Assembly (NCBI GenBank): GCA_031547085.1
Contig: JAVBSH010000128.1
Span: forward strand, 39,632-103,631
Direction of reading: 5' to 3'
Length of the DNA stretch: 64,000 nt
DNA from: Bacteroidales bacterium
Lineage (GTDB): Bacteria; Bacteroidota; Bacteroidia; Bacteroidales; UBA4181
The position numbers and the translations under genes are program-made. The notes under the pieces were generated by a model. It was not told where the DNA came from, searched no databases, and was given only the letters and a program-made list of their open reading frames with translations. The stretch's first letter is position 1. Each line of letters opens with the position of its first letter. This document shows positions 6,019 to 63,796 of the stretch, one piece after another.

Positions 6019-8274
6019 ATGGACTTATACGTTATTCTTGTCGCATTCCTTTTGCTCTTAGCGTTTTTCGACCTGATGGTCGGTGTGAGCAATGACGCAT
6101 CCAATTTCCTGAACTCTGCAATCGGGTCCAAAGTCGCATCCTTTCGCACCATCATGATTTTTGCCTGTCTTGGGGTAATTATCGGCGCTACCTTTTCGAG
6201 TGGTATGATGGATATTGCACGCAACGGCCTGTTCGATCCTGAGAAATTCTACTTCAATGAAATTATCTGGATATTTGTAGGTGTGATGGTAGCCGATGTG
6301 TTGCTGCTTGACATCTTCAATAGTTTCGGATTACCCACATCTACCACGGTTTCCATTGTATTTGACCTGCTGGGAGCTTCGCTGGCCATGGCATTGTACA
6401 AAATATCACATTCAGATGGCGGTTTTGCTGAACTCGGGCAATACATCAATACCGAGAAAGCATTGGCAATCATCAGCGGGATACTTATCTCGGTGGTGGT
6501 AGCTTTTATCTCAGGCATCATCATCCAATGGGTGGTACGGGTCATCTTTTCGTTCGATTATCGCAAATCATACAAATACTTTGGGGCTATCTTCGGAGGT
6601 ATTGCTATTACGGCCATTGTCTATTTCATGATCATGAAAGGGGCCAAAGGAGCATCGTTCATGAAACCTGAATACCTCGAATACATCACTACGCATAATT
6701 GGCAATTGCTGTTGGGCAATTTTATATGCTGGACGGTTGTTTTGCAGTTGCTCATGTTGCTTTTCCGTACCAATGTACTGAAAATCGTGATCCTTGTGGG
6801 GACATTTGCCCTGGCAATGGCTTTTGCAGGCAATGATTTGGTAAACTTCATCGGGGTTCCGCTGGCAGGATTGGAATCATACAAACAATATGTAGCATCG
6901 GGTGTTGCTGACAGCAGCCTGATGATGGGTGCGTTGAAAGCGCCCGTCAGTACGCCTACCATCTTTCTGCTGATCGCAGGGCTAGTAATGGCTGGAACAT
7001 TGGTATTCTCGCGTCGTGCACGCAAAGTGATCGACACGACTGTAAATCTCAGCCGCCAGGATGCAGGCGAAGAGCAATTTGATTCTACGTTGCTGGCACG
7101 TTCGCTGGTGCGCGGATCATTGAATGTGTCAAGCTTTTTCGAACGTGTTGTTCCCCGGCGTTGGCAAAGGAGGATTGATCGGCGTTTTCGTCATAAGAAA
7201 ACCGACGAGGATGTGGCTTTCGACCAGGTACGGGCTTCGGTTAATTTAGTAGTAGCCAGTATTCTGATTGCTTCAGCCACTTCATTAAAGCTTCCGTTAT
7301 CTACCACTTATGTCACTTTTATGGTCGCAATGGGTAGTTCGCTGGCCGACCGTGCATGGGACCGCGAAACAGCAGTGTACCGTATTACCGGTGTGATTAC
7401 TGTCATTGGCGGATGGTTCATTACGGCTATTTCGGCATTGACTTTGTCGTGTCTTGTTACCGGTTTCCTTATCTGGGGCAAATGGATTGCTTTTGCCATA
7501 TGTATGGCGGTAGTGGGATATTTCATGTTCCGCTCGTTGTTCGTTTCTGAAAAGGCTGAAAAGGAAAAAGAAAAGAAAAAAGTGAAAGAAGACGCCTTGC
7601 TGAGCGCCAAAACGGTAACTGCGTCGAAGGTGTTTGAGAGTTGTAATGAAGAGATTGTATCGGCAGCCATATCGGCTTCCAAGCTCTATTATCTCACGCT
7701 CAATAATTTTCTTGCAGGAAAACGGAAGGCTTTAAAAGGCATACACGACGATGTATACGAACTGAGTAAACATACGAAAGATCTTAAGAATAATTCTTAC
7801 AAGGTGATTGCCAAGTTGCAAGGAGAGGCATTGGAATCGAGTCAGTATTATGTGCAGGTGGTGGATGCATCCCGTGAAGTGGGCAATAGTGTGTTTCATA
7901 TCTATAAACCGGCTTATGAATATTTGGATAATAACCACACCCCATTTTCCAGCACACAGATGACTGAACTCACTGAGTTGAATGACGAAGTGTCTGTATT
8001 TTTCAACATGATCCTGCATACTATAAAAAACCGCAAATACGAAAACTCATCGGAGGAAATACGCAAACGAAAAGTAAGCGTACTCGCGCTGGTCGACATC
8101 CTCCAACGCAAGCAGTTGAAGCGCATCAAAAAACAGGAAGTATCCACTCGCAACAGTGTGCTTTATCTCAACATATTGACTGAAACCAAAAACCTGACTT
8201 TGTTCTCGGTGAGCTTAGTGAAAGCAAATCGCAATTTTTACCAGATGGTATCGGAAAAAAAGATATCCAAATAG
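6019..8274 (+). CDS. PiT (PHO4) family inorganic phosphate transporter with long C-terminal PhoU-like helical domain
   Basis: N-terminal GVSNDASNFLNSAIGS and second-half AGNDLVNFIGVPLAG match the duplicated PiT GANDVAN-type motif. There are many TM segments. The C-terminal ~240 aa are soluble and helical (PhoU-like by composition only). Confidence 0.75.
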   Translation: MDLYVILVAFLLLLAFFDLMVGVSNDASNFLNSAIGSKVASFRTIMIFACLGVIIGATFSSGMMDIARNGLFDPEKFYFNEIIWIFVGVMVADVLLLDIFNSFGLPTSTTVSIVFDLLGASLAMALYKISHSDGGFAELGQYINTEKALAIISGILISVVVAFISGIIIQWVVRVIFSFDYRKSYKYFGAIFGGIAITAIVYFMIMKGAKGASFMKPEYLEYITTHNWQLLLGNFICWTVVLQLLMLLFRTNVLKIVILVGTFALAMAFAGNDLVNFIGVPLAGLESYKQYVASGVADSSLMMGALKAPVSTPTIFLLIAGLVMAGTLVFSRRARKVIDTTVNLSRQDAGEEQFDSTLLARSLVRGSLNVSSFFERVVPRRWQRRIDRRFRHKKTDEDVAFDQVRASVNLVVASILIASATSLKLPLSTTYVTFMVAMGSSLADRAWDRETAVYRITGVITVIGGWFITAISALTLSCLVTGFLIWGKWIAFAICMAVVGYFMFRSLFVSEKAEKEKEKKKVKEDALLSAKTVTASKVFESCNEEIVSAAISASKLYYLTLNNFLAGKRKALKGIHDDVYELSKHTKDLKNNSYKVIAKLQGEALESSQYYVQVVDASREVGNSVFHIYKPAYEYLDNNHTPFSSTQMTELTELNDEVSVFFNMILHTIKNRKYENSSEEIRKRKVSVLALVDILQRKQLKRIKKQEVSTRNSVLYLNILTETKNLTLFSVSLVKANRNFYQMVSEKKISK

Positions 8275-8292: not shown

Positions 8293-8371
8293 ACCTGCTG
8301 GGTCTCTAAGACCCGGTAGGTCTGGATGCTTGGTAAAACCTACCGGGTCTTAGAGACCCAGCAGGTTTTTA
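8293..8371. terminator. Bidirectional intrinsic terminator built from two inverted copies of a 29-nt hairpin element
   Basis: ACCTGCTGGGTCTCTAAGACCCGGTAGGT (8293-8321) and its exact reverse complement (8338-8366), followed by TTTTT. It lies between the convergent PiT and TPP-decarboxylase genes. Confidence 0.75.
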
Positions 8372-15734: not shown

Positions 15735-15897
15735 TTGTATCTTTCTTTAAATGTATGAGTTCAAATTAAAAAATTGAGCGCAAATATATAGTTTTTTTTA
15801 AAGCTAACGACAAACAATATGATATTTAAAGTAAAAAGGAGAATGGGAAAGGAGAAAATCCTGTTCAGGTATTCGTAGTTAGCACGCCATAGGAAGA

Positions 15898-16668
15898 TTA
15901 TACCGTTAGAAAATCAGCATCTCCTTTGAATGAATGTAACGAAACATCCGTTCCGTCAAAAACAGCATAAGTTTGACTCTCTATCCACTCACCGGTATTG
16001 ATATAGCGGCTGTTTTCGCCCAGACGCATATCCATTGCAAGATGGCGATGCCCGAAAACGAAAAAATCATAATGTTTTCCGGAAAGTTGCCGGCGGGCAT
16101 ACATGGCAATCTCTTCCCTGCCTATCCCTTCAAATGGTTCGTATAAACCACGGCGGGCACGGCTGTTTCTCGACCAATTTTTCCCGAAAGCAATTCCCCA
16201 GAAGGGATGAAGCATGGCATACATCATCCGCAGGAACTTGCTGCCGAAAGCCATATTGAGCATCCGTTCAATAAAACCCTCGGAACCGACATCATGCCCG
16301 TGCCCAACCAAGAATCGTTTACCATTGAGGTCAAATTCGGTCGGTTTCCTGTATATCTCAATATTCATTTCGTAAGGCAGGTAGTTGCGAATCCACTGGT
16401 CATGGTTGCCTGTAAAAAAGTATATCGGGATGCCATTATCGGTCAGTTCGGCCAATTTACCCAATAAGCGCACAAAACCACGGGGAACCACATGCCTGTA
16501 TTCGAACCAGAAATCGAACATATCGCCCAATAAAAAAATGGCTTCGGCATCGGTTTTCACCATGTCGAGCCATTTCACAAAATCCAGTTCCCGGCGGCGA
16601 CTTACCTCATCGGGCGCCATCGTCAGGTGCAGGTCGGATGCAAAATATATTTTTTTATTCGGTGACAA
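15898..16668 (-). CDS. lpxH: UDP-2,3-diacylglucosamine diphosphatase (LpxH-type calcineurin-like phosphoesterase)
   Basis: IYFASDLHL, LLGDMFDFW, GNHD and GHGH metallophosphoesterase motifs occur in LpxH order and spacing. It overlaps the upstream gene by 14 nt. Confidence 0.75.
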   Translation of the reverse strand: MSPNKKIYFASDLHLTMAPDEVSRRRELDFVKWLDMVKTDAEAIFLLGDMFDFWFEYRHVVPRGFVRLLGKLAELTDNGIPIYFFTGNHDQWIRNYLPYEMNIEIYRKPTEFDLNGKRFLVGHGHDVGSEGFIERMLNMAFGSKFLRMMYAMLHPFWGIAFGKNWSRNSRARRGLYEPFEGIGREEIAMYARRQLSGKHYDFFVFGHRHLAMDMRLGENSRYINTGEWIESQTYAVFDGTDVSLHSFKGDADFLTV

Positions 16669-27120: not shown

Positions 27121-27132
27121 GATACAAACATA

Positions 27133-27160
27133 AACAAAAAAGTGCAGCTTTTGCCGCACT
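27133..27160 (-). terminator. Rho-independent terminator of the porP-gldKLMN operon
   Basis: The minus strand reads AGTGCGGC-AAAA-GCTGCACT followed by TTTTTTGTTTATG. Confidence 0.65.
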
Positions 27161-27195
27161 TTAATTCTTAATTCTCAACTCTTAATTCTTAATTT
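27161..27195 (-). repeat. Heptamer-period array (5 x 7 nt) directly after the gldN stop
   Basis: Minus strand after TAG+G: AAATTAA GAATTAA GAGTTGA GAATTAA GAATTAA (plus strand TTAATTC TTAATTC TCAACTC TTAATTC TTAATTT). Confidence 0.8.
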
Positions 27196-27196
27196 C

Positions 27197-28087
27197 CTAA
27201 TACTCCCAAAGGTCTTGTTCCCAGTCGAATATTTCATTTTCGATCCGTTGTGCTTCATACAAGGCATCCAATCCGGTTGCATATTCCTGAATCGACCGGT
27301 TGTTATACACATTGGCTATCTGGTAGATATGTCCGGAATAACGGCACTGCATGAAGAAATCGTCAAAGGATATGTTTTGCGCATCATTGAAACGGTTGAA
27401 TACCGGATGGCGGGCCAGCACGTTACGTGCTTGGGGCATATACACCCACATGGTTTTCATCATATCTAACGCTCCATCGTCGCTGCCGTCGCGTGAATAT
27501 AGCCGGATGGGGCATATCCCGACAACCATACGGTTCAGTACGGAATGTCTCTTGTCAAAAAATATTTTTTCTTTGACCAAGAACCTCTTGACTTCATCGG
27601 TACGGGGAGGCTGGTTCGTTATTTTCCTTACCAGGTTACCATTTTCGTCAGGTACATCAATCGTGTCAATCTTGGCACCTAAATATTGATGAACTTCAGC
27701 CAAACTGATCTTACTGGAAAACTCATTATAATCATCATTAGGATTATACGGGGTAATTTCACCATTTTCGACGCCCTTCAACAGGAGATTTACCAGGTTA
27801 ACACGGCTACCAATGGGAGCTGTGGGGTAATACAACGGCAAATTCTGTTTTTCGCGCAAATCAATCATACGCCAGACAATCTTCTCGAACACCACATCAG
27901 CCTCCCTGACAGGAGCATAAGGGATTGGTTTCTTGAAAGGAATATTCTCCTTCTGGTATACTTCAATCATGTAATCAACCGCCGTAGTGGATGAGTCAAC
28001 TTTGGCTACCGCCGGTTGTTGCGCCGATAACGTACCGGCAAACACCCATAAACCCAATCCTAAAAATATACTACTTATGCGCTTCAT
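27197..28087 (-). CDS. gldN: Gliding motility / T9SS protein GldN (PorN)
   Basis: It is the last gene of the conserved porP-gldK-L-M-N order. Signal peptide MKRISSIFLGLGLWVFAGTLSA|QQ. I preferred the ATG at 28087 over the TTG at 28114, which overlaps gldM. Confidence 0.9.
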   Translation of the reverse strand: MKRISSIFLGLGLWVFAGTLSAQQPAVAKVDSSTTAVDYMIEVYQKENIPFKKPIPYAPVREADVVFEKIVWRMIDLREKQNLPLYYPTAPIGSRVNLVNLLLKGVENGEITPYNPNDDYNEFSSKISLAEVHQYLGAKIDTIDVPDENGNLVRKITNQPPRTDEVKRFLVKEKIFFDKRHSVLNRMVVGICPIRLYSRDGSDDGALDMMKTMWVYMPQARNVLARHPVFNRFNDAQNISFDDFFMQCRYSGHIYQIANVYNNRSIQEYATGLDALYEAQRIENEIFDWEQDLWEY

Positions 28088-28106
28088 AAATATAACTCTA
28101 CTTATT

Positions 28107-29735
28107 TTAATCAACTGTGAAACTAATGGAAGGCAATTCCCGGATCTTATTATCGGGGCCTACCGCTTTAATACCATCAAAAATTACTCTAGAACCTCTT
28201 GTTGCACCTTTAATGATGTCTCTCTGCTTATCAGAAATTTTTGCGCCTTTAACCGGCTCTTCCTGTACAAATTGCCCTTTACTGGCAGAAACGGTGAATT
28301 CAGTAACATTGAATTTCAACTCGAATTCAAAATTTTCCATATCCGCAAGAACAGCAATCTGGGCAGACAATGTACCTTTGTCAATCTTGCCTCCGATTTT
28401 ACCGGCAACTTTGGCAATAGGGCTGGGTACTGTCTTTACGCGGTATTTCATGCGCGTCATCTCGCGGGTTTGCCCTTCGATATTGGCCGATACAATAATG
28501 AACGCTTCACCTTGGGTCGCTGGTTTTGCAATCCAGTCACCTCCCGATCTGACCAACGATCCGTTGGTGATACTTGCCGATATTTTTTCAGCAGGAACGC
28601 CCGAAACTGATATACTGATAGGGTTATCCAAACTCACGTACAATACATTCATTTTAGTGGCCGAAACAACAGCATTGGCTTCGCCTACCTGGTATTCGGA
28701 AGTGAACGGATAACTCGTCATGCCTTCGGGAGTCATCATACGCAACAATCCTTGCAAGGTGTAATTCCCGACAGAGGGCGAACTCTTATAAATAGCCCTG
28801 CCTTTTGCATCGTACGGCAATGCTCTGCCTTCGCCTACCATTTCGTAACCTGAAGCGGTTTTTCTGTATTGACCGAGTATAATTTCAGGCTTCTGCAAAC
28901 TGTCGTAAGCAGCCAGAAGGATACGGGCTTCGAATTCGTTGCCCTTCAGCACATAATTTGATTTGGACAATACAATGGCTTCCATCTTGTTCACCTTGGT
29001 ATCGCTTGCACCAATCTGCGCCAACAGGTTTTGTACTATATCTGCTTCAGCATTCCTTACATCACTTTGCAGTTTCGACATCATGGTGATCACTGCCACC
29101 ATCGGGATGTGTTCAAAATGGCTTGATTCCCAAGTCTGCACTGTACCATCTTTACCTGCCGGAGGAGCGTCGGTATTCAGCGCTTCTTTGATGGCCGTCT
29201 GGATGGAAGGATCGGTTGTCATGGAAAGAAGTTGTTCCCTGTAGGAATCAATCTTACCTTTCAATTCTTCACCCTTCTTTCCTACGATCATAATTTGCGC
29301 CGGCTTATCCAAATTGTCTTTGGAAGCGATCAATGCATCATTGATGTCGTAAGTTGATTTTTTCTCTCGCTTGGAACCGACGATCCATTCGGCAGGAGTG
29401 AGTGCAGGAGCATCGTCGCCATCGCAGTGCTTAACGATTTCCACTTTCAGTTCCTGGATGTCGTACGCCAATTGGTCGGCCATATCCTTTACGCTGTATG
29501 CTTTGTCGCGGAAAGGCCCTACTTTGGCAGCGCTCTTTTCCATTTGTGCATCAAAGATACCGTATGCCGATTCATTCTTGGCGACGAAGTTTGCGGTTGT
29601 CTTAACCAACCCATTGTCTACGAGGACAAAAGCATTGAGAATGTCTGCGGATACATTGAGTGCCAACATTGCTGTGAGCACCAAGTACATCATCCCGATC
29701 ATCTTTTGCCTCGGCGTCTCTTTTCCGTGACCCAT
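28107..29735 (-). CDS. gldM: Gliding motility / T9SS protein GldM (PorM)
   Basis: The N-terminus MGHGKETPRQKMIGMMYLVLTAMLALNVS matches the conserved GldM N-terminal TM motif. 542 aa, mostly periplasmic. Confidence 0.9.
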   Translation of the reverse strand: MGHGKETPRQKMIGMMYLVLTAMLALNVSADILNAFVLVDNGLVKTTANFVAKNESAYGIFDAQMEKSAAKVGPFRDKAYSVKDMADQLAYDIQELKVEIVKHCDGDDAPALTPAEWIVGSKREKKSTYDINDALIASKDNLDKPAQIMIVGKKGEELKGKIDSYREQLLSMTTDPSIQTAIKEALNTDAPPAGKDGTVQTWESSHFEHIPMVAVITMMSKLQSDVRNAEADIVQNLLAQIGASDTKVNKMEAIVLSKSNYVLKGNEFEARILLAAYDSLQKPEIILGQYRKTASGYEMVGEGRALPYDAKGRAIYKSSPSVGNYTLQGLLRMMTPEGMTSYPFTSEYQVGEANAVVSATKMNVLYVSLDNPISISVSGVPAEKISASITNGSLVRSGGDWIAKPATQGEAFIIVSANIEGQTREMTRMKYRVKTVPSPIAKVAGKIGGKIDKGTLSAQIAVLADMENFEFELKFNVTEFTVSASKGQFVQEEPVKGAKISDKQRDIIKGATRGSRVIFDGIKAVGPDNKIRELPSISFTVD

Positions 29736-32983: not shown

Positions 32984-33202
32984 TCCTTTATCGTAATTCT
33001 TATAGAATATTGACATTTACAAAAAAACGTAAAATAACTAAAAAAATTGTTTACGAACAAAAATGCCGTTCGGAATTTTGTTTGCGCATTAACATACCAT
33101 TATACTGAATAAGGAAGCAAATGGTTACATTTTTTGTGGAAGATTTCATATTTTTTTAAATAAAAATACATAAATCGCTGATTGTCAATTAGAATTATTT
33201 TC

Positions 33203-45837: not shown

Positions 45838-46227
45838 GTGGTTATAGCGGTAGACTTTGACGGGACAATTGTTGAAGACCGGTATCCGGGCATCGGCAAG
45901 GAGAAACGTTTTGCGTTCATGACGCTTAAAGCCTTGCAAAAGGACGGACATCGTCTGATATTGTGGACGTACCGTTCGGGGCAGGCATTGGAGGAAGCGG
46001 TAGAATTCTGTCGCAAGAACGGTGTCGAGTTTTATGCCGTCAACCGGAGCTATCCCGAGGAAGTGATGGATGAAAGCCAGATGAGCCGGAAAATACATGC
46101 CGACATTTTCATCGATGACCGTAATCTTGGTGGATTCGTGGAATGGGGAAAGGCATGGCAGATCATCAACAACGAACCCTTCCTTGAAGAAACGCCACAA
46201 AAAAAATGGAAATGGTTTAAAAGATAA
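45838..46227 (+). CDS. Small HAD-like hydrolase-fold protein (hypothetical)
   Basis: (M)VIAVDFDGTIVEDRYP carries the DxDGT motif I of HAD phosphatases. 129 aa. GTG start at 45838; an in-frame stop at 45796 leaves no upstream ATG. Confidence 0.55.
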   Translation: MVIAVDFDGTIVEDRYPGIGKEKRFAFMTLKALQKDGHRLILWTYRSGQALEEAVEFCRKNGVEFYAVNRSYPEEVMDESQMSRKIHADIFIDDRNLGGFVEWGKAWQIINNEPFLEETPQKKWKWFKR

Positions 46228-46230
46228 TAA

Positions 46231-46299
46231 TTACGAGTTACAAAGTTACAAGTTACGAGTCCGCGTAACTTGTAACTTGTAACTTGTAACTTGTAACTC
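46231..46299. repeat. Palindromic heptamer array (AAGTTAC x3 / GTAACTT x5)
   Basis: GAGTTAC-A-AAGTTAC-AAGTTAC-GAGTCCGC-GTAACTT x4-GTAACTC. AGTTACAAGTTACG (46244-46257) pairs perfectly with CGTAACTTGTAACT (46264-46277). It lies between the stop of 45838..46227 and the ATG of the cyclase gene. Confidence 0.85.
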
Positions 46300-46307
46300 A
46301 ATTTCAA

Positions 46308-47411
46308 ATGAAACTTGTTTTTTTGACACTCTGCTTGTGTGTTTCCCTGTTTACCACCTGTTCGTCGTGCAACCGGAGTAATAGGGAGTCGAAATCGAAA
46401 AATACGACGGAACAGCAACGCCCGCGTCAACAGAGGGCACGGATTGCCATTTCGTCGCCAAGAAATAATGAAAAGCAGGCACTGGGCTCCGCCATTATTT
46501 TGTCTGTCCAAGTAAAAGATACTTCCGACCCCATAGATTCGCTCCGCTGGTTCATTGGCGGCAGATGGTTGAAAACGACCAAGGGTGGGGATGTTACTTG
46601 GAACACATCGGGGCAAACTACGGGTACACACCGTATTGAGGCTGTGGCATATTATGTTTCGGGACAGCATGACATGGTGTCGACAAGTGTCGTTTTGTTG
46701 GCTGACAAGGCGCCTAAACAATACACATATAAAGTGGTGCAGACCTATCCGCACGACAGGAAAGCCTATACCCAGGGATTGGTTTTCGATAATGGTTTCC
46801 TGTACGAAAGTACTGGCCTGAAAGGCGAATCATCGCTACGTAAGGTCAATATCCAGACAGGCGAACCTATTCAAGTGACCAATATGCCGGGCGATATGTT
46901 TGGTGAAGGGCTGGCATTGGTGGATAATAAATTGATCCAATTAACTTGGCAAAATCAGGTGGCCTTTATATACCGGAAAGATGATTTCAAGGTGCTGGAT
47001 AAGATCAATTACTCGATGCGCGAAGGCTGGGGATTGGTTTTCGATGGCACGCACCTGCTGATGACCGACGGCTCGGCAACCCTTTATTCCCTGGATAAGG
47101 AATATCTCACGGAAGTACGCCGGTTGGAAGTGTGCGACAACAAAGGATTGGTGAGGGAATTGAACGAGTTGGAATATATCAACGGGGAGTTGTGGGCCAA
47201 TGTTTACCAAACAGACGACATCCTGCGCATCGATCCGGCCACAGGTGTTGTACTGGGATGTATCAATATGGAGGGATTGCTGAAACAAAGCGACAGGGAT
47301 AACGATACCAATGTGCTGAATGGCATTGCCTATGACGAGAAAACAGGAAAGATATATGTTACAGGGAAAAACTGGCCGAAACTGTTCGAAATACAGGTGG
47401 TAGAGAAGTAA
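46308..47411 (+). CDS. Glutaminyl-peptide cyclotransferase (beta-propeller, plant/bacterial type) lipoprotein with N-terminal extra domain
   Basis: Lipobox MKLVFLTLCLCVSLFTTC. YKVVQTYPHDRKAYTQGLVFDNGFLYESTGLKGESSLRKVNIQTGE and the following propeller repeats match type I glutamine cyclotransferase. About 130 aa of an extra Ig-like region precede it. Confidence 0.85.
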   Translation: MKLVFLTLCLCVSLFTTCSSCNRSNRESKSKNTTEQQRPRQQRARIAISSPRNNEKQALGSAIILSVQVKDTSDPIDSLRWFIGGRWLKTTKGGDVTWNTSGQTTGTHRIEAVAYYVSGQHDMVSTSVVLLADKAPKQYTYKVVQTYPHDRKAYTQGLVFDNGFLYESTGLKGESSLRKVNIQTGEPIQVTNMPGDMFGEGLALVDNKLIQLTWQNQVAFIYRKDDFKVLDKINYSMREGWGLVFDGTHLLMTDGSATLYSLDKEYLTEVRRLEVCDNKGLVRELNELEYINGELWANVYQTDDILRIDPATGVVLGCINMEGLLKQSDRDNDTNVLNGIAYDEKTGKIYVTGKNWPKLFEIQVVEK

Positions 47412-47439
47412 AAGTTACGAGTGACAGGTTACAAGTTAC
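47412..47439 (+). repeat. Heptamer array (4 x 7 nt) starting at the first base after the cyclase stop
   Basis: TAA then AAGTTAC GAGTGAC AGGTTAC AAGTTAC. Confidence 0.75.
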
Positions 47440-47449
47440 ACAACGGCAA

Positions 47450-47632
47450 CTAACAAAAGCGGCATTCTTCCGATGATGAGGATTTTTCCAACAGGTTTTT
47501 CAGGTCGCATCCCGGGCAACCGGCACATTTATTTACTTGTCCCTTTTTAACAAACACAAAACGATACAGCTTGTAGCATAACCAGGCTACAATCAACATG
47601 CCAATGATATATATGACAATGTCTTGTATCAT
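47450..47632 (-). CDS. FeoB-associated Cys-rich membrane protein family (small)
   Basis: MIQDIVIYIIGMLIVAWLCYKLYRFVFVKKGQVNKCAGCPGC: one TM followed by a CxxCxxC-like tail, as in the FeoB-associated small protein family. No feoB is present in the window. Confidence 0.55.
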   Translation of the reverse strand: MIQDIVIYIIGMLIVAWLCYKLYRFVFVKKGQVNKCAGCPGCDLKNLLEKSSSSEECRFC

Positions 47633-47740
47633 GATATAGAAACACATCATCATGCAAAATGTTCTATTTCAATACCTTTTTCCAATCTGTCACTGACAAT
47701 TATATCCGGCTACCGACATCAAAAATTGTACCTGTTTGAA

Positions 47741-53113: not shown

Positions 53114-53145
53114 AATTATGAATTAGGAGTTATGAATGATGAGTG
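53114..53145. repeat. Heptamer array filling the tlpA-like/yifB intercistronic gap
   Basis: The plus strand reads AATTATG AATTAGG AGTTATG AATGATG AGTG. It lies 1 nt from the TAA stop (53147-53149) and 8 nt from the yifB ATG (53105). Confidence 0.7.
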
Positions 53146-53146
53146 T

Positions 53147-54271
53147 TTACTTGTCTTTGTCATTAGTTTCCAACAGTTCTGCCAATTTCTTTTCCAGGTC
53201 GTTGGGTTGAAGTCCTTTGGCAAGGATTTTACCTTCCTTGTCCAGTAGAACGGTGTATGGGATCGAATTGACCGAATAAAGCTTTGCAGCGGCGCTTTGC
53301 CAGAATTTTAGGTCCGACATTTGCGGCCAGGTCAGCCCGTCGGCTTCAATTGCCTGCACCCATTCCCCTTTATCCCTGTCCAGTGAAATACCGACTATTT
53401 CAAAACCTTTATCCTTATACTTGTTGTATAGCTTCACCACATGCGGATTTGCCATCCGGCACGGTCTGCACCACGATGCCCAGAAGTCGATCAGCACATA
53501 TTTGTCTTTACCAGTATAATCCGAAAGAGCAATTACATCACCATTGGGTGCCGGCAATTTGATATCGGGCGCCGGTTGCCCCTCAGCCAGACGCTTGGCA
53601 GCGCCCGCTTTTTCCTTGATGCTTTGTACCCACGGCGACTTGCTGTTTACCTCGTCGAAACCATTGGCATAAGTTTCCATCTGGTCGGCTGTGATATAAT
53701 ACGAAAGGGTTTTGTCCACCACCAGGGCTGTAACCATCGAATTGGGATGATCCGTTGTAAATTTCATCATATAGTCGATCCGTTGTTGCCTGATCTCGTC
53801 CATCTGGGCCAGATAACCTTTTTCTTTTTCAGCGTCCGTTTCGCCGGAAAGTTTAAGCGACATGTAGTCGTCGTTCACCTTTTTGATGCTTTTCTCGAAT
53901 TCAGCCATGCCGTTATTGAACTCGTCAAATAAATCGTTTTCTTTCGATCCTGTTATTTTCGAATCCTGCATATTTTTCAGGTCGAAGACAACGTCGATGA
54001 CTGAATTTTCGACAAAAAACTGTGCCGGGCCATTTTTCCCTACATACAATAGGCTGTATTCGGGATATTCCACGGTACCTTTCATCTCGAATTTCCCGTT
54101 TTTAACCACACAGCTATCAATACCCACCGGTTCCATGTCGATGGTTACTTTTTTCAGTACCACTTTTTGTCCGTCAGCATCCGCCAAATCGCCCTTAATA
54201 GTATATCCTGTGTGTTCTTTACATGCTTGCAATGCAAACACTGCTATGATTATCCAAACTAAACGTTTCAT
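53147..54271 (-). CDS. TlpA family thiol:disulfide oxidoreductase lipoprotein (canonical CxxC)
   Basis: Lipobox MKRLVWIIIAVFALQAC (ATG 54271). A DUF4369-like N-terminal domain is followed by YVLIDFWASWCRPCR. Confidence 0.8.
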   Translation of the reverse strand: MKRLVWIIIAVFALQACKEHTGYTIKGDLADADGQKVVLKKVTIDMEPVGIDSCVVKNGKFEMKGTVEYPEYSLLYVGKNGPAQFFVENSVIDVVFDLKNMQDSKITGSKENDLFDEFNNGMAEFEKSIKKVNDDYMSLKLSGETDAEKEKGYLAQMDEIRQQRIDYMMKFTTDHPNSMVTALVVDKTLSYYITADQMETYANGFDEVNSKSPWVQSIKEKAGAAKRLAEGQPAPDIKLPAPNGDVIALSDYTGKDKYVLIDFWASWCRPCRMANPHVVKLYNKYKDKGFEIVGISLDRDKGEWVQAIEADGLTWPQMSDLKFWQSAAAKLYSVNSIPYTVLLDKEGKILAKGLQPNDLEKKLAELLETNDKDK

Positions 54272-54442
54272 TGATGATTGATTTAATATCATGCAAAGGT
54301 ACGATATTCATCAATATATACAGCGTTGTGATGGCGTTTTTTCAACAACAGCTGCCATCAACTACACTGCATGGTAAATACTATCGAGTAAATAATTGAC
54401 GTTTTGATATTGTTGTTCAATTCTGATTTACTGCGCTTTGCG

Positions 54443-54470
54443 TCAATTGTCAATTATCAATTATCAATTA
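54443..54470 (-). repeat. Heptamer array after the stop of the 708-aa hydrolase gene
   Basis: Minus strand after TAA+TAAAT: AATTGAT AATTGAT AATTGAC AATTGAC. Confidence 0.8.
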
Positions 54471-54474
54471 TTTA

Positions 54475-56924: not shown

Positions 56925-57653
56925 TTATTCTTTTGGTTCGTCTTTTTTTGCACCTCCTTTGCGTTGCGCCAAAAGGGTGCTGTAATCCTTGATGATGGCA
57001 TTGAGATCGGTTACCACTGTGTCGAACCGGTTGTCCTTATAACGGTCGATATCGGCATTGATGGCGTCCTTAATGGAGGTAAAAGCGGGATCGACTTTTA
57101 AACGGACGACTTTTACATTGCCCGACGGACGATTAGTTTTATCGTCGCGGCAAAGTTTGTCAACTTCTGCAAACCGTTGATTGGCGCTCAGCAACTTGTC
57201 TAACCGTCCTTGCGCTCCAATCTGGTCAATATCGGCCTGGTAGGGTTTCAATTCGTTTCCTAACTGTATGATCATGGATGTTTCGGCCTGGTCAGCCAAC
57301 TTCCAAGGGTTACCCACTTGCCGGATGATGCGCATGACACGTTTTGCAGCTTCAAAATCGGCAGCTTCCTCTTCATCGAAAAGGAATGATTTCACATAAT
57401 GGTAAAGTTGGCTGTGCATCCGGTCGCGATAATAATCGGCCGCATCCCTTTGTGCGGTTATAGAGCTACCTAACTCCACCGACAATGCTGTTTCCTCCTC
57501 CTGCATCAGCTGTGCCAGGTCATCATACAATGCACGGATGTTCAGGTTGTCAGGGTCATGTTTCAGGAGCGCTTCCAGTATGAGCCTGATAAATTGCATA
57601 TGTTCCTTGTTCCGCAGGTTGTGAGGCGAGAATTTTACGATTTTAGTTTTCAT
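56925..57653 (-). CDS. Hypothetical all-helical protein (possibly DUF6261-like, low confidence)
   Basis: 242 aa with no signal peptide. The N-terminus KFSPHNLRNKEHMQFIRLILEAL recalls the RLRNxEHxQF start of a Bacteroidetes DUF family. This is from memory only. Confidence 0.45.
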   Translation of the reverse strand: MKTKIVKFSPHNLRNKEHMQFIRLILEALLKHDPDNLNIRALYDDLAQLMQEEETALSVELGSSITAQRDAADYYRDRMHSQLYHYVKSFLFDEEEAADFEAAKRVMRIIRQVGNPWKLADQAETSMIIQLGNELKPYQADIDQIGAQGRLDKLLSANQRFAEVDKLCRDDKTNRPSGNVKVVRLKVDPAFTSIKDAINADIDRYKDNRFDTVVTDLNAIIKDYSTLLAQRKGGAKKDEPKE

Positions 57654-57756: not shown

Positions 57757-57966
57757 AAAACCATGACGACAGTACCTTCCGGACTTACGGAGCACACTAA
57801 AACAATGACAACTATACCCTCCGGATATGCGGAACATACTAAAACTACGACGACCTTACCCTCCGGATTTACGGAGCATCCCAAAACCACGGCGACGATA
57901 CTCTCCGGACTTGCGGAGTATATTAAAACCGCGACAATATATCCTCCGCAGTTGCGGACGGCGTTT
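57757..57966. repeat. Tandem array, 5 units of exactly 42 bp, each with an invariant TCCG-N6-CGGA inverted repeat
   Basis: Units start at 57757, 57799, 57841, 57883 and 57925 (AAAAC[CAT]..G.C.A.....C.TCCGNNNNNNCGGA......). The array overlaps the track ORF 57763..57993 (76 aa, 14-aa repeats T-T-x-P-S-G-x-x-E-H-x-K-T). Confidence 0.85.
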
Positions 57967-58110: not shown

Positions 58111-58896
58111 TTATTCCAAACCGAGTTTCCTGAAATCTTCTATTTCCTTTTGCATCTTTTCCAACTCTCCGTCTAACTTTTTACTATACTTTTTAAGTGA
58201 TGCTTCTGTAACTTCGGTTCCTTCAAAACAAAGCATATTGTCTAATTCAGTTTCTTCTATAAGTTTGAAAATCTCTTCTTGAGGATTCTCCAACCTGCTA
58301 TTGATAAGTACTAACTCAATCCTGATCCTCCACAGTCTATATAAAAGTTTAGCATGGAGACCAATATGCTGATATGTCTTGAAAGCGGTAGGCATGATGA
58401 AGGCTCCGCATGCATGATACTGTCCTGCTGCGTTTTGAAATGACCCCATTTCGCTTGCATACCCCATAATGATCGGGTAAGCAAAGGTATTCATCACATC
58501 TATCATTCGTTCAATTTCTTCTCTAACCTTTTTTCTGACTTCTTTTTTGTCTTTAATGCCATCTTCAAACAGGGACTTGAAGATCGAAAATAAGGTATCT
58601 GCTTGAGGAGAACCCCATCCTTTGGGTATTGAAAAATCAGGGGATATCTTGTCCCCATGCGCTAAGACATCAATGGCTGATAACGGAGATTTATTCAATT
58701 CAAGCTTAAACCGCTCGATATTTTCAATCGTCATTTTTGCTTTTTCCCACTCGCTCGATTCGATTATTGAACGTCTTGCATAAAAGACCTGTGCCAGGAT
58801 AAAACATAAAGACACCAAAGTGCCGATATAATAAAGATTCGGTAGCCAAACCTTAACCTCACCATACCATTTTTGCTTTTGCTTTTTGTTTTTCAT
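58111..58896 (-). CDS. Hypothetical N-terminally membrane-anchored helical protein, AT-rich gene
   Basis: The ATG at 58896 gives a Lys-rich start MKNKKQKQKWYGEVK plus one TM (LPNLYYIGTLVSLCFILAQVF). The remainder is soluble and helical with a C-terminal coiled coil. No family confidently recognised. Confidence 0.5.
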   Translation of the reverse strand: MKNKKQKQKWYGEVKVWLPNLYYIGTLVSLCFILAQVFYARRSIIESSEWEKAKMTIENIERFKLELNKSPLSAIDVLAHGDKISPDFSIPKGWGSPQADTLFSIFKSLFEDGIKDKKEVRKKVREEIERMIDVMNTFAYPIIMGYASEMGSFQNAAGQYHACGAFIMPTAFKTYQHIGLHAKLLYRLWRIRIELVLINSRLENPQEEIFKLIEETELDNMLCFEGTEVTEASLKKYSKKLDGELEKMQKEIEDFRKLGLE

Positions 58897-59009
58897 AGAA
58901 TGACATATAAGAAATGTCGACAAATATAAAACATAACTTTAATAAAACAGAAGCAACTGTTTTATACTTGCATTTTATACTTTAATCTGATATTTCAGAA
59001 ATTAACCGG

Positions 59010-61169: not shown

Positions 61170-61196
61170 TTCGAAACTTCAAACCCGAAACTCAAA
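61170..61196 (-). repeat. Heptamer array following the 29-nt hairpin element
   Basis: The minus strand reads GTTTTGA GTTTCGG GTTTGAA GTTTCGA (plus strand TCGAAAC TTCAAAC CCGAAAC TCAAAAC). Confidence 0.7.
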
Positions 61197-61225
61197 ACCT
61201 ACCGGGTCTTCCAGACCCAGCAGGT
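61197..61225 (-). terminator. 29-nt hairpin element (third full copy) abutting the PL11 stop codon; probable terminator
   Basis: The minus strand reads ACCTGCTGGGTCT-GGA-AGACCCGGTAGGT followed by TTTTGAGTTT. It matches the arms at 8293-8366 except for two loop bases. Confidence 0.65.
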
Positions 61226-63084
61226 TATTGCTTTTTAATCACATATATCTTTGGTTGTGGTACCTGTTCCAGTCCGTCACCAATGTAAAAACCAAGGTGT
61301 GGCGGCTGATTGTATGCTACATTCTGCCATGCAATACTTAATCGGTACACTGGGTCGTGCATCAGCGTGTAAAGACGGTGGTCTGTGGGGACGGTTGTGG
61401 TGAATAACAACAATTGACTGGGATCTTCCCTGTTGTAAAGAATCACCTCTTCCCGCCAATCACCAAGTATATCGGCACTGAGACAGGGATTTCTCTTGGC
61501 CCCGTTGATAGACATCCCTCCATAGTTTGTGAAATCAATCAGGCGGTCGACCCCGTTGCCGTTCCACTTATCAATGCGCGTGCCGTCGAGTAGCTCGTCC
61601 TGCAAGTCGCCATCCCAGTAAATGCGGAAGTTAACAGACGGTTTGCGTGTCGAAACCGGTTGTCCCTTGATGTTGTATACCGTGTCGCTTGCCGAGCTCC
61701 AGAACTCGAAGCCTCGGTAACGCGGGTCGATATCGGCAGCCAATCCCCGCCCGACGTCGAAAGTTGTGGGACGACCAAAGAGCAATGCTCCCGTAGCGGC
61801 ATCACGCAGTTCTACACCTGCACGGTTGGGTGTTTGTTCGTGTACGTCAAAGAACTCCAGTCCCGGACGGTCGGGGTCAAGGTCTGACAGGTGCCCTGCA
61901 TCGCCATGCCCCAGGCCAGTGGTATACATCAGTTTGCCATTGTGGTCGATGGCCGCACCTCCATAAACGATCTCGTCGAACCCATCGCCGTCCAGGTCTC
62001 CAACCGCTATGTTATGGTTACCCTGTCCGAAAGCCGTTGTTCCGGGCGTATGTCCTGTTCCCGAATCATATACCCACCGTTCTTCCAACCTGCCATTTCG
62101 GAAATCGTAGGCTGCCAGCACAGCTCGGGTATAGTAGCCGCGGCACATCACCAGACTGGGATGCACCCCGTCCAGGTAAGCAATGCAGGCCAGATAGCGG
62201 TCGGCACGGTTTCCGCGGTTATCGCCCCATGTTTCACGTACAGTATTACCTCGCGGCGGATTATAAGCAATCGTATGTATCCCGGCTCCGGTAGTACCAT
62301 TGAAAACCGTCAGGTATTCCGGCCCATCAAGGATAATGCCCCGTTCGTTGCGGTAATCAGCTGAAGGGTCGTCATTACCCATGATAACATATTTCCCTTT
62401 GCCATCAATGGTTCCCGGCGCTGTTTTGCAAGCCACCTTTGCAATGCCGTCACCATCGAGGTCGTATACCATGAATTGTGTATAGTGAGCTCCTGCACGG
62501 ATGTTTCGTCCGAGGTCAATCCGCCAAAGCTGCCGACCGTCAAGTTTATACGCATCCAGATACACATTATCCGTATAGCCGTCGTGTGCATTATCCCTGG
62601 CACGGGCATTCCATTTGACAACAATTTCATATTCGCCATCACCGTCCAGGTCGCCAACACTGCAATCGTTGGGAATATACTCTATCTTCCGTCCCCGTTC
62701 CGTTATTTCTGTTTTCAGTGCGGGACGGTTTAGCTGGATGACCTTATATGGAGTTGCCCAGGGCGTCACTGCTTTCGATGTTTCTATTTCCTTCCCTTTC
62801 ACTACTGTTTTTACAATGTAGCTACCCTCAACCGTGCCATTTGTGTCCAGCAGATTGGTAGCGCCGGCAATAGGTTTAGGGTTAACGAGTTCTTTCCCGT
62901 TGCGATAGATATTGAATTGTGTTTGCGGGTCGTCGGTTCCAAGTAGCCGCCAGCTAATGTATACGCCATTACCGGTTTGGACAGCGACCAGTCCCCTGTC
63001 GAGCGCTTCCATCTGTCGTTGGGCTATTGCAGAAGTCACCAAAATTCCCAACAACATGAAAATAGAAAATATTTTTGCCATCAT
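61225..63084 (-). CDS. PL11 family rhamnogalacturonan lyase (YesW/YesX-like beta-propeller)
   Basis: Signal ...SAIA|QR. LDRGLVAVQTGNGVYISWRLLGTDD and repeated Ca-binding DLDGDGEYEIVVKW / VYDLDGDGIAKV / VGDLDGDGFDEIVYG blocks. Confidence 0.8.
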   Translation of the reverse strand: MMAKIFSIFMLLGILVTSAIAQRQMEALDRGLVAVQTGNGVYISWRLLGTDDPQTQFNIYRNGKELVNPKPIAGATNLLDTNGTVEGSYIVKTVVKGKEIETSKAVTPWATPYKVIQLNRPALKTEITERGRKIEYIPNDCSVGDLDGDGEYEIVVKWNARARDNAHDGYTDNVYLDAYKLDGRQLWRIDLGRNIRAGAHYTQFMVYDLDGDGIAKVACKTAPGTIDGKGKYVIMGNDDPSADYRNERGIILDGPEYLTVFNGTTGAGIHTIAYNPPRGNTVRETWGDNRGNRADRYLACIAYLDGVHPSLVMCRGYYTRAVLAAYDFRNGRLEERWVYDSGTGHTPGTTAFGQGNHNIAVGDLDGDGFDEIVYGGAAIDHNGKLMYTTGLGHGDAGHLSDLDPDRPGLEFFDVHEQTPNRAGVELRDAATGALLFGRPTTFDVGRGLAADIDPRYRGFEFWSSASDTVYNIKGQPVSTRKPSVNFRIYWDGDLQDELLDGTRIDKWNGNGVDRLIDFTNYGGMSINGAKRNPCLSADILGDWREEVILYNREDPSQLLLFTTTVPTDHRLYTLMHDPVYRLSIAWQNVAYNQPPHLGFYIGDGLEQVPQPKIYVIKKQ

Positions 63085-63150
63085 GATTGATATAATCCCG
63101 TTTATCTTGACGCTTTTAATTCTGACATTATAATGCTTTGCGCAATATAG

Positions 63151-63175
63151 TCATTTTCAATTCTCAATTTTCAAT
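63151..63175 (-). repeat. Heptamer array overlapping a stop codon
   Basis: The minus strand reads AATTGAA AATTGAG AATTGAA AATGACT. The first two units encode the last residues (I-E-N) and the TGA stop (63164-63166) of ORF 63164..63796. Confidence 0.7.
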
Positions 63176-63796
63176 TATTTGATAGCTTGATCCGTTGCGG
63201 GTTTCTACCAATTGTACTTTTTCGGTTTTTTGCACCTCGACACCTGTTAATCGGATATTCCGGGCATCGTCCAGTACAAAAGCCGGGCGATCATCAGCCT
63301 CCATAAAGCCAACTTGTACATTATGGAAACGTATGTTGGCTGCATGACGTACAAAAAAAGCCGATGCCGGTATCGTACCGAACATCCAGGGTTCGGGGTA
63401 GAGTTTTTCGTTTTCGGGCGGTGCCAGTTTACCGTCTTCCGCTGAATGACCGCCCCGGTATAGAATCCGAATATTCGATAAGACACGCGCACGGATGACG
63501 AATTTTCCCTTTGCCAACCATTGATTGGTGATTTCGAAATCGATGCCGTCTTTAGTCTTATTGGTTTTGATGTTCCCGGGATGATTCAACCATGTGCTCT
63601 GCCCGCCCGAAATAATTCCCAACTTGAAATTTCCCGTCATTCCATTCATCAGGAAAGCAAATTCGGGAAACGCACAGGCAACGATTTTCGGTGCATCTTT
63701 ATTTCCTGCTAGAACATGAATGAACAGGTTTTTGTCCTGTGCAAAAGCATTTCCAACCAGGAACATAAAAATGAACGGCAGCATCAATCTGGTCAT
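63164..63796 (-). CDS. Secreted protein resembling only the C-terminal part of a GH28 parallel beta-helix
   Basis: Own signal peptide MTRLMLPFIFMFLVGNAFA|QD. PENEKLYPEPWMFGTIPASAFFVRHAANIRFHNVQVGFMEADDRPAFVLDDARNIRL resembles the conserved C-terminal segment of GH28 enzymes. Its ATG overlaps the upstream stop (ATGA). Confidence 0.45.
   Translation of the reverse strand: MTRLMLPFIFMFLVGNAFAQDKNLFIHVLAGNKDAPKIVACAFPEFAFLMNGMTGNFKLGIISGGQSTWLNHPGNIKTNKTKDGIDFEITNQWLAKGKFVIRARVLSNIRILYRGGHSAEDGKLAPPENEKLYPEPWMFGTIPASAFFVRHAANIRFHNVQVGFMEADDRPAFVLDDARNIRLTGVEVQKTEKVQLVETRNGSSYQIIEN

Follow-up and report, generated by a model that had tools for sequence, protein, structure and literature searches.

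Tandem arrays of heptanucleotide units have, to our knowledge, been known in scattered bacteria since 1990, with neither their mechanism nor their function established. Here we analyzed arrays of this kind in a 64,000-nt stretch of a Bacteroidales genome (contig JAVBSH010000128.1, positions 39,632 to 103,631; hereafter the window), starting from one that lies just behind the gldN stop codon (locus 1) and six further loci that an earlier reading of the sequence alone (the sequence-only reading) had grouped with it. Among the systems described so far, the G-rich heptameric repeats of Xanthomonas (GGGAATC) and Nostoc (GGGGAYT) prefer about four units, are enriched between co-directional open reading frames (ORFs) and lie nearer the 5' neighbouring ORF; they occasionally form tandem inverted pairs, are mostly transcribed, and are linked neither to mobile elements nor to phase-variable genes (Rehm et al., 2015, PMC4692102). 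The TAACTGA direct repeats of Beggiatoaceae, Cyanobacteria and five Bacteroidetes are intergenic and run to 2-6 copies; read forward they close all three frames, read in reverse they are open, with copies inside ORFs, and some sets overlap the end of the upstream ORF while being absent from the orthologous spacers of close relatives (MacGregor, 2015, PMC4679880). In Geobacter metallireducens, elements of four GGACCGG or five MTYCTGA tandem heptanucleotides, some of them drawn as paired, strand-switching sites, have been proposed to play a regulatory role (Aklujkar et al., 2009, PMC2700814). More generally, heptanucleotides are the commonest unit of long simple-sequence repeats (SSRs) in scattered lineages, for which slippage has been proposed (Mrazek et al., 2007, as cited in PMC4679880), and the cyanobacterial STRR heptamers of Calothrix provide a further example (cited in PMC4692102).

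The arrays in the window belong to this already reported heptamer class, with about four units placed near or overlapping stop codons and sometimes arranged as inverted pairs. The suggestion of the sequence-only reading that they formed an undescribed class of element is therefore wrong, given the reports of Rehm (PMC4692102), MacGregor (PMC4679880) and Aklujkar (PMC2700814) and their colleagues. What is new here is an AT-rich family in Bacteroidales (NAATTGA, GAATTAA, AAGTTAC), together with the comparison across phyla; a literature search for literal AATTGA arrays found nothing relevant. The window arrays resemble the G-rich repeats in their preference for about four units, their stop-proximal placement and their inverted pairs. 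However, the G-rich units were read as G-quadruplex formers and contain no stop triplets, whereas the window units are AT-rich and incapable of forming quadruplexes, and the host phyla differ. TAACTGA and the TAATTGA unit of the window are one base apart and share the form TAA-N-TGA, and the property of closing every frame forward while remaining open in reverse is shared by loci 5 and 7 and by the right arm of locus 2. In 'Maribeggiatoa', however, TAACTGA sets mostly end 1 nt before a start codon, whereas the window arrays adjoin stop codons. Neither the TAACTGA unit itself nor the start-codon placement of that family is found in the window, which has no tandem TAACTGA, TAATTGA being the closest unit at one mismatch. 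The Geobacter elements are likewise blocks of four to five heptamers with many copies per genome, but there a single consensus unit is dispersed 16-49 times per genome and is sometimes intragenic, whereas here nearly each locus has its own unit. Finally, the long SSRs and STRR heptamers are intergenic 7-nt units like those of the window, with different unit sequences; as they are summarized in the two papers that cite them, these surveys did not resolve stop-codon placement or inverted-pair hairpins.

Arrays in the window were called with Tandem Repeats Finder (TRF), and significance was assessed with 100 shuffles that preserved local dinucleotide content. Nine of the 13 arrays with at least three copies had a period of 7 nt, whereas a shuffle yielded 0.09 on average and 1 at most, an excess of about 100-fold that no other period displayed. 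The excess of 7-nt periodicity is thus real. The same numbers bear on whether the arrays could have arisen by chance, or as a low-complexity artefact, in AT-rich intergenic DNA. This idea draws on the fact that AT-rich arrays sit in AT-rich spacers, but given the observed and expected counts, the lack of excess at other periods, and the recurrence of the same architecture with GC-rich units in a 63% GC genome (see below), we consider it almost certainly wrong.

Clear arrays of 3.4-4.9 units were found at six of the seven noted loci (Table 1). They consist of contiguous head-to-tail 7-nt units in at least three copies, as in other heptanucleotide tandem repeats. All six loci are intergenic and begin 0-4 nt past a stop codon or overlap one, in agreement with the placement first proposed for them. 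At locus 7 the TGA of the second unit is itself the stop (63164-63166) of a DUF4450-like gene. Unit types in the window are AATTRA, GTTAC and TCATAAT. The common (A/G)TT core ascribed to the loci holds for four arrays with AATT and three with GTTAC; locus 6 fits neither, and, with a period of 14 in only two copies, is the one of the six further loci at which no clear array was found. Three weaker candidates, near 33177, 8400 and 12581, were dropped, there being no tandem-repeat signal at a score of at least 30. The units also lack the 23-50-nt repeats and unique spacers that make up a CRISPR array, as had been recognized from their period, and Rfam 15 gave no match at gathering score anywhere in the 64-kb window.

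Table 1. Repeat arrays and adjoining features of the window. Positions count from its first letter; aa, amino acids; REP, repetitive extragenic palindrome.
Feature	Position	Strand	Description
Locus 1, direct array	27161..27195	-	AAATTAA GAATTAA GAGTTGA GAATTAA GAATTAA, 1 nt (G) past the gldN stop; TRF (27161-27194) unit TTAATTC, 4.9 copies, 85% matches
gldN stop codon TAG	27197..27199	-	ORF 27197..28114
Intrinsic-terminator-like hairpin AAAGTGCGGC-AAAA-GCTGCACTTT, then T-run	27129..27162	-	adjoins locus 1
Locus 2, left arm, (AGTTACN) x 4	46231..46260	+	starts 3 nt past the stop of a 129-aa gene (45838..46227); TRF unit TTACAAG, 4.1 copies
Locus 2, right arm, (GTAACTT) x 4.9	46265..46299	+	inverted copy of the left arm; 8 nt ahead of the glutaminyl cyclase ATG (46308); TRF (46265-46298) 4.9 copies, 100% matches
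Locus 3	47412..47440	+	AAGTTAC GAGTGAC AGGTTAC AAGTTAC; 4.1 copies, 0 nt past the glutaminyl cyclase stop
Locus 4, array	53114..53145	-	53114-53142 at 4.1 copies; 1 nt past the stop of a thioredoxin-like gene (53147)
Locus 5	54443..54471	-	TAATTGA x 3 then CAATTGA (sense); 3-4 nt past the stop of a 708-aa gene; TRF unit TCAATTA, 4.1 copies, 95% matches
CGCAAAGCGCAG mini-hairpin motif	54431..54442	-	directly 3' of locus 5 (alignment)
Locus 6, degenerate stretch	61170..61199	-	weak, no convincing heptamer array
REP-like hairpin ACCTACCGGGTCTTCCAGACCCAGCAGGT	61197..61225	-	abuts the rhamnogalacturonan-lyase stop; adjoins locus 6
Locus 7	63151..63176	-	TAATTGA AAATTGA GAATTGA AAATGA (sense); 63153-63176 at 3.4 copies
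Extra period-7 array, AAAGGAG x 3.4	15835..15857	-	76% matches; intergenic, about 40 nt past a stop at 15898

The architecture first described for locus 1 was confirmed in each of its parts: the heptamers start 1 nt past the TAG, the gene encodes GldN (Pfam match, E = 7e-63), and the array runs into a 10-bp GC-containing hairpin on the minus strand (27162->27139) followed by a T-run. The terminator at this gene end is the adjoining hairpin at 27139-27162, and the array itself is not part of it. Locus 3 occupies the space between the cyclase stop and the stop (47450) of a convergent 67-aa ORF, and locus 4 fills the 41-nt spacer between the thioredoxin-like stop (53147) and the ATG (53105) of a Mg-chelatase/ComM-like gene. 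Only loci 2 and 4 end 8 nt ahead of an ATG. Six of the seven loci also pair up around single genes, at 46231-47440 (glutaminyl cyclase), 53114-54471 (thioredoxin-like protein) and 61170-63176 (rhamnogalacturonan lyase); all six lie within the final 18 kb of the window, and a common unit is found only in the pair that flanks the cyclase gene.

The direct arrays were unpaired in predicted RNA folds. Locus 4, for instance, had a predicted energy of 0 kcal/mol, and all 200 of 200 shuffles folded at least as well. In contrast, the two arms of locus 2 folded together into a hairpin of −36.7 kcal/mol (z = −8.7). This hairpin has no U-run, so that neither it nor the unpaired direct arrays have the form of an intrinsic terminator. 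Folding thus shows the direct arrays as predicted spacers of about 30 nt, unstructured and AU-rich, in the 3' untranslated region (UTR) or between cistrons, and inverted pairs such as locus 2 as predicted stems of 28-35 bp.

We then compared orthologous gene ends in the nearest uncultured Bacteroidales metagenome-assembled genomes that a scan of a genome collection yielded, the only two with a GldN of 70-73% amino acid identity (L001 and L002) and one with the best cyclase homolog, at 76% (L003). In both gldN orthologs the C-terminal residues and a homologous terminator hairpin are kept, but they are separated by an unrelated 21-27-nt spacer without an array. The syntenic cyclase ortholog lacks the arrays on both sides, including the locus 2 hairpin, and the spacer that corresponds to locus 3 is an array-free 16 nt, although the sequence of the downstream convergent 67-aa ORF is retained. 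The expectation that array position would be conserved in relatives is therefore contradicted at the ends of both genes, which is part of the outcome that the sequence-only reading had itself named as telling against its proposal. As in the published heptanucleotide class, the sites are lineage-specific. The relatives nonetheless carry arrays of their own at different gene ends: one adjoins a stop codon (L001:12818-12849), three lie between genes of an ABC-transporter operon in L003, and L004:7411-7484 is an inverted pair. Thus, the phenomenon belongs to the clade, while the individual sites do not. Also in L003, the gene for a 23S-rRNA-IVP-like protein is flanked by inverted GATTCAA arrays. 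Two contigs that are 95% identical (L013 and L050) are set apart by an indel of 39 nt that contains (ATAAATC) x 3, and elsewhere share an identical AATTGAN array.

The survey was widened to 828 kb of related and metagenomic loci, the metagenome contigs having been found by a AATTGANAATTGANAATTGA scan (at least 120 contigs). This sample held 287 period-7 arrays, compared with at most 32 at any other period. The 287 arrays are spread over 86 canonical units, so that what stays constant is the period and not the sequence. Copy number displayed a shoulder at 4-5 units and fell steeply beyond 5.5, and an inverted partner lay within 90 nt of 34 of 257 arrays. The contigs that bear AATTGAN arrays range from 25 to 64% GC among the matches listed. 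One array (L121:1527-1621) mixes TAACTGA and TAATTGA units, and to judge from these units it is a link between the published Beggiatoaceae/cyanobacterial family and the AATTGAN arrays. In a low-GC contig, an AATTGAA array (L006:1570-1650) lies about 30 nt upstream of a conserved 16S-rRNA-like segment (GGAGGAAGGTGGGGATGACGTCAAA).

Placement in this sample depended on orientation. Of 27 sense NAATTGA arrays between co-directional genes among the matches listed, 25 lay closer to the stop than to the following start, with a median distance of 1 nt. AATTGAN arrays also occurred in divergent intergenic regions and directly ahead of start codons (about 10% of arrays end right at an ATG, again among the matches listed), and inside called ORFs, where 32 lay in the stop-free orientation and 2 in the forward one. 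Overall, orientation relative to flanking co-directional genes was balanced (28:29). Long ORFs terminated at the TGA of the first, second or third array unit in 14, 14 and 9 cases, which matches ORFs entering the array in a random reading frame. What the sequence-only reading took for a fixed position is thus a strong preference that belongs to one orientation.

Reading frames offer one possible reason for this tendency. In 5 of 8 arrays of the window (among them loci 1, 5 and 7 and the right arm of locus 2), every frame of the sense strand contains a stop; on the antisense strand this holds for 0 of 8, and among background intergenic 30-mers for 6%. Arrays lying 0-10 nt past a stop in the wider sample had stop triplets on the sense strand only or the antisense strand only at a ratio of 30:6, and TAATTGA and the published TAACTGA share the same TAA-N-TGA form. 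The arrays might thus be selected as fail-safe translational stops or insulators, which would catch read-through or frameshifted ribosomes before the terminator or the next cistron. We regard this as very unlikely to be the explanation. Locus 3 and the left arm of locus 2 do not close all three sense frames; among arrays not chosen by the search pattern the bias was 10:4 and not significant, and in any case a stop triplet is present on a given strand in about 62% of heptamer units. Moreover, GC-rich arrays of the GGGCAGA type and the published GGGAATC repeats hold no stop triplets, yet the former are flush with stop codons, and a single extra stop would do as well as 30 nt.

In the other orientation, arrays were associated with promoter-like sequences. 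A reverse-complement Bacteroidetes −7 box (TAnnTTTG) was present within 40 nt upstream of 14 of 131 arrays, at exactly 6 nt in 7 of them, compared with 1-2 in each of three controls. Of the 8 arrays lying 6-8 nt from the box, 5 have a variable base that creates a TTG at 19-21 nt from it. At L035, L038, L047, L063, L064 and other loci, it is a C at the variable position that makes this TTG. By their sequence, AATTGAN arrays near opposite-strand −7 boxes seem to have been recruited as −33 promoter elements. For loci 5 and 7, an internal promoter of the downstream gene was also considered and rejected, as no TAnnTTTG box lies at a suitable distance.

Could a protein recognize these arrays? Contiguous heptads are recognized elsewhere: the omega repressor of plasmid pSM19035 binds arrays of them as operator and centromere. 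The ctx promoter of Vibrio cholerae likewise contains TTTTGAT heptads (bioRxiv 10.1101/2021.05.14.444153). The likeness to our arrays is one of geometry only, namely contiguous 7-bp units in direct and inverted arrangement; in those systems copy number affects promoter activity, and AATTGAN arrays can lie 6 nt upstream of −7 boxes. However, the omega and ctx arrays have one fixed unit, a known binder and promoter sites, whereas those of the window have variable units behind stops. By analogy, the arrays might be cis-regulatory sites read by a protein that takes one heptad per subunit, within a global post-transcriptional or termination-linked regulon. Candidate readers would be ribosomal protein S1 or a cold-shock-domain protein on RNA (6-7-nt footprint), or an omega-like ribbon-helix-helix protein on DNA, and S1, Csp or CsrA have been proposed for the TAACTGA repeats (PMC4679880).

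Several observations favor such a reader: the AATTGA hexamer stays constant and the seventh base does not (60 of 136 AATTGAN runs are heterogeneous at N), one hexamer spans contigs of 25-64% GC among the matches listed, length is confined to 4-5 units, direct and inverted arrangements occur as in omega heptads, and placement depends on orientation. The heterogeneity count, however, depends on a search pattern that itself fixes the hexamer. Mismatches are concentrated in single columns (z = 11), but this is explicable at least in part by duplication of variant units and higher-order repeats and, for AATTGAN, by the same pattern. Units are wholly different between loci of one genome, both in the window and in the GC-rich L136 (below), a diversity that speaks against a single binder; orthologous sites lack the arrays, and no candidate protein was identified. 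We therefore think a heptad-reading protein unlikely.

One GC-rich match lies at the 3' end of pilB in Thermoanaerobaculia (Acidobacteriota). Among strains whose PilB is 94-100% identical, the pilB-pilT spacer consists either of 9-17 nt with only a Shine-Dalgarno sequence, or carries an inverted (AATTGAA)4 pair or an inverted (AGCTCKC)4 pair, and the insert always lies between the stop codon and the Shine-Dalgarno sequence. Elsewhere in this comparison, an inserted array hairpin of 89 nt adjoins a stop codon at a distance of 0 nt. The contigs L136-138 contain 11 period-7 arrays in 21.7 kb, in most intergenic spacers, compared with zero in the syntenic sister L134/135. Ten of the 11 form five inverted pairs, each with a distinct GC-rich unit, while the eleventh has only a short inverted partner; the units in L136 are GGGCAGA, AGCTCTT, GCAGTAG, CACGGAA and GCCGACC. 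Arrays in L136-138 have 3.4-5.1 copies, so that the preference for about four units seen in the window holds here as well, and the folded array-bearing spacers reach −56 to −82 kcal/mol. In the array-free L134, a simple hairpin GTGGCAGA...TCTGCCAC occupies the place of (GSGCAGA)4...(TCTGCSC)4 in L136. Also within this pil locus, inverted arrays flank a 60-aa DUF5522 gene.

Such presence and absence at a fixed junction could also arise if the arrays, especially the inverted pairs, were non-autonomous mobile elements or their footprints, of the kind of miniature inverted-repeat transposable elements (MITEs) or REPINs (a class of REP hairpins), that insert directly behind stops. Whole array hairpins of 90-125 nt are indeed present or absent at identical junctions of near-identical strains, 0-15 nt past a stop; a similar sequence (CGCAAAGC...CAGAATTRAA) flanks AATTGAN arrays on the 3' side both at unrelated loci and in a relative; and the cyclase gene in the window is flanked by arrays of a single unit type, with a corresponding arrangement around the 23S-rRNA-IVP-like gene in L003. 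But within a genome each locus has its own unit, and the dispersed near-identical copies that define MITEs and REPINs are not seen in the stretches compared (the window and L136-138). Two unrelated unit types occupy one junction in sister strains, and the simple hairpin of L134 corresponds in place to the amplified hairpin of L136. Neither the pilB-pilT nor the FHA insertions show a visible target-site duplication, nor was any transposase seen in association with the arrays, and the G-rich repeats likewise were not associated with mobile elements (Rehm et al., 2015, PMC4692102). An origin by transposition is thus quite unlikely. Because the unit differs from locus to locus, and a simple hairpin in one strain stands where an array stands in another, the comparison points to generation or collapse in place and not to the spreading of a single mobile sequence.

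With moderate confidence, we favor the explanation that the arrays are generated in place, turn over fast and are tolerated just behind the stop as long simple-sequence repeats of 4-5 units, or 28-35 nt. Units of 7 nt would be duplicated or misaligned in situ and quickly gained and lost, and the resulting arrays would be retained where a few nucleotides are free of constraint, between a stop and the next terminator hairpin, promoter, or ribosome-binding site and start. In most AT-rich arrays each sense unit supplies a TAA or TGA; as 7 leaves a remainder of 1 when divided by 3, three units put a stop in every reading frame. Such an array may touch or replace the end of an ORF harmlessly, but would not be expected to sit deeper inside one. 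The arrays would then set the distance from the terminating ribosome to the terminator or the next start and would close all three frames, acting at most as sequence-independent spacers, insulators or hairpins; the hairpins may serve processing, stability or termination.

Several observations are difficult to reconcile with this explanation. Simple slippage does not account for the narrow length of 4-5 units and its sharp drop above 5.5, nor would one expect a single AATTGA hexamer to recur across contigs of 25-64% GC (among the matches listed), or one lineage to be array-rich in most spacers while its syntenic sister is array-free. Position depends on orientation, forward arrays being flush with the stop and reverse arrays 6 nt from a −7 box, and the variable base gives a TTG 19 nt from that box in 5 of 8 cases, a spacing which argues that at least some arrays are under local selection. 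Stop-free GC-rich arrays (GGGCAGA) lie flush with stops as well, so that the three-frame-stop argument is not general. Lastly, the comparison for the genome of the window rests on relatives at 70-76% amino acid identity and not on strains.

We tested two specific triggers for array formation and rejected both, the first as a general rule. If arrays grew out of the heptamer with the stop codon in it, that heptamer should resemble the unit; by eye it gave 5 of 7 matches at loci 1, 3 and 5, but this required a register shift of 1 nt, and in strict register 2-4 of 7 positions matched, no better than at other gene ends. In a larger sample of arrays that do not overlap the stop, in-phase stops numbered 8 compared with 6.9 expected, and similarity to the unit was 2.42 matches compared with 2.31. 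Similarly, slippage provoked by a neighboring hairpin found no support, as perfect GC-containing hairpins lay within 10 nt of an array edge at 4.1% per side, compared with 4.5% at 70 nt away.

A further alternative to generation by ordinary in situ duplication is that the arrays are an element defined by its architecture (4-5 x 7 nt, either in direct form or paired into an inverted stem of some 30 bp), written behind stops by a dedicated, lineage-specific process and used as a tunable 3'-UTR or intercistronic module common to Bacteroidota, Acidobacteriota, Xanthomonas, cyanobacteria and Geobacter. A specialized polymerase, a template-switching or retro-type activity, or amplification of hairpin stems might do the writing, and ribosome-terminator spacing, RNase III-type processing or attenuation might be the use. 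We consider this reading doubtful.

Other observations concern the surroundings of the arrays. Three AATTGAN arrays at unrelated genes each have, directly on their 3' side, a mini-hairpin, CGCAAAGC(G), with ..TAAAT..CAGAATTRAA after it (54431-54442, 63135-63143 and L001:12808-12818); on the strength of this shared sequence, motif and array may form a small composite element. The 210-aa ORF that ends in locus 7 (63164-63796) matches the DUF4450 profile only at positions 1-52 of 212 and may be truncated or diverged. Past the stop of the gene at 6019..8274 lies a long perfect palindrome, CCTGCTGGGTCTCTAAGACCCGGTAGGT ... ACCTACCGGGTCTTAGAGACCCAGCAGG (8294-8365), which together with the related hairpin at 61197-61225 looks, from the letters, like a dispersed family of REP-like elements. 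The 67-aa ORF on the minus strand opposite locus 3 (47450-47653) is Cys-rich (..CAGCPGCDLKNLLEKSSSSEECRFC), and its nucleotide sequence is conserved in L003; it probably represents a genuine small gene, which annotation may miss. Finally, the 457-nt gap between 56925..57653 and 58111..58923 holds a tandem repeat of 42 (or 84) nt, with 4.6 copies at about 75% identity (57757-57948).

These results have consequences for heptamer repeats in general. The AT-rich Bacteroidales family obeys the same rules of placement and length as the G-rich repeats, and the G-quadruplex is thereby excluded as their common denominator; it cannot be the common explanation of heptamer repeats. The pilB-pilT junction, which is empty, AT-rich or GC-rich in near-identical strains, is a natural experiment on how arrays originate. 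If arrays affect termination, operon polarity or the stability of mRNA, gene expression would have in them a fast-evolving source of variation, one that genome annotation ignores today.

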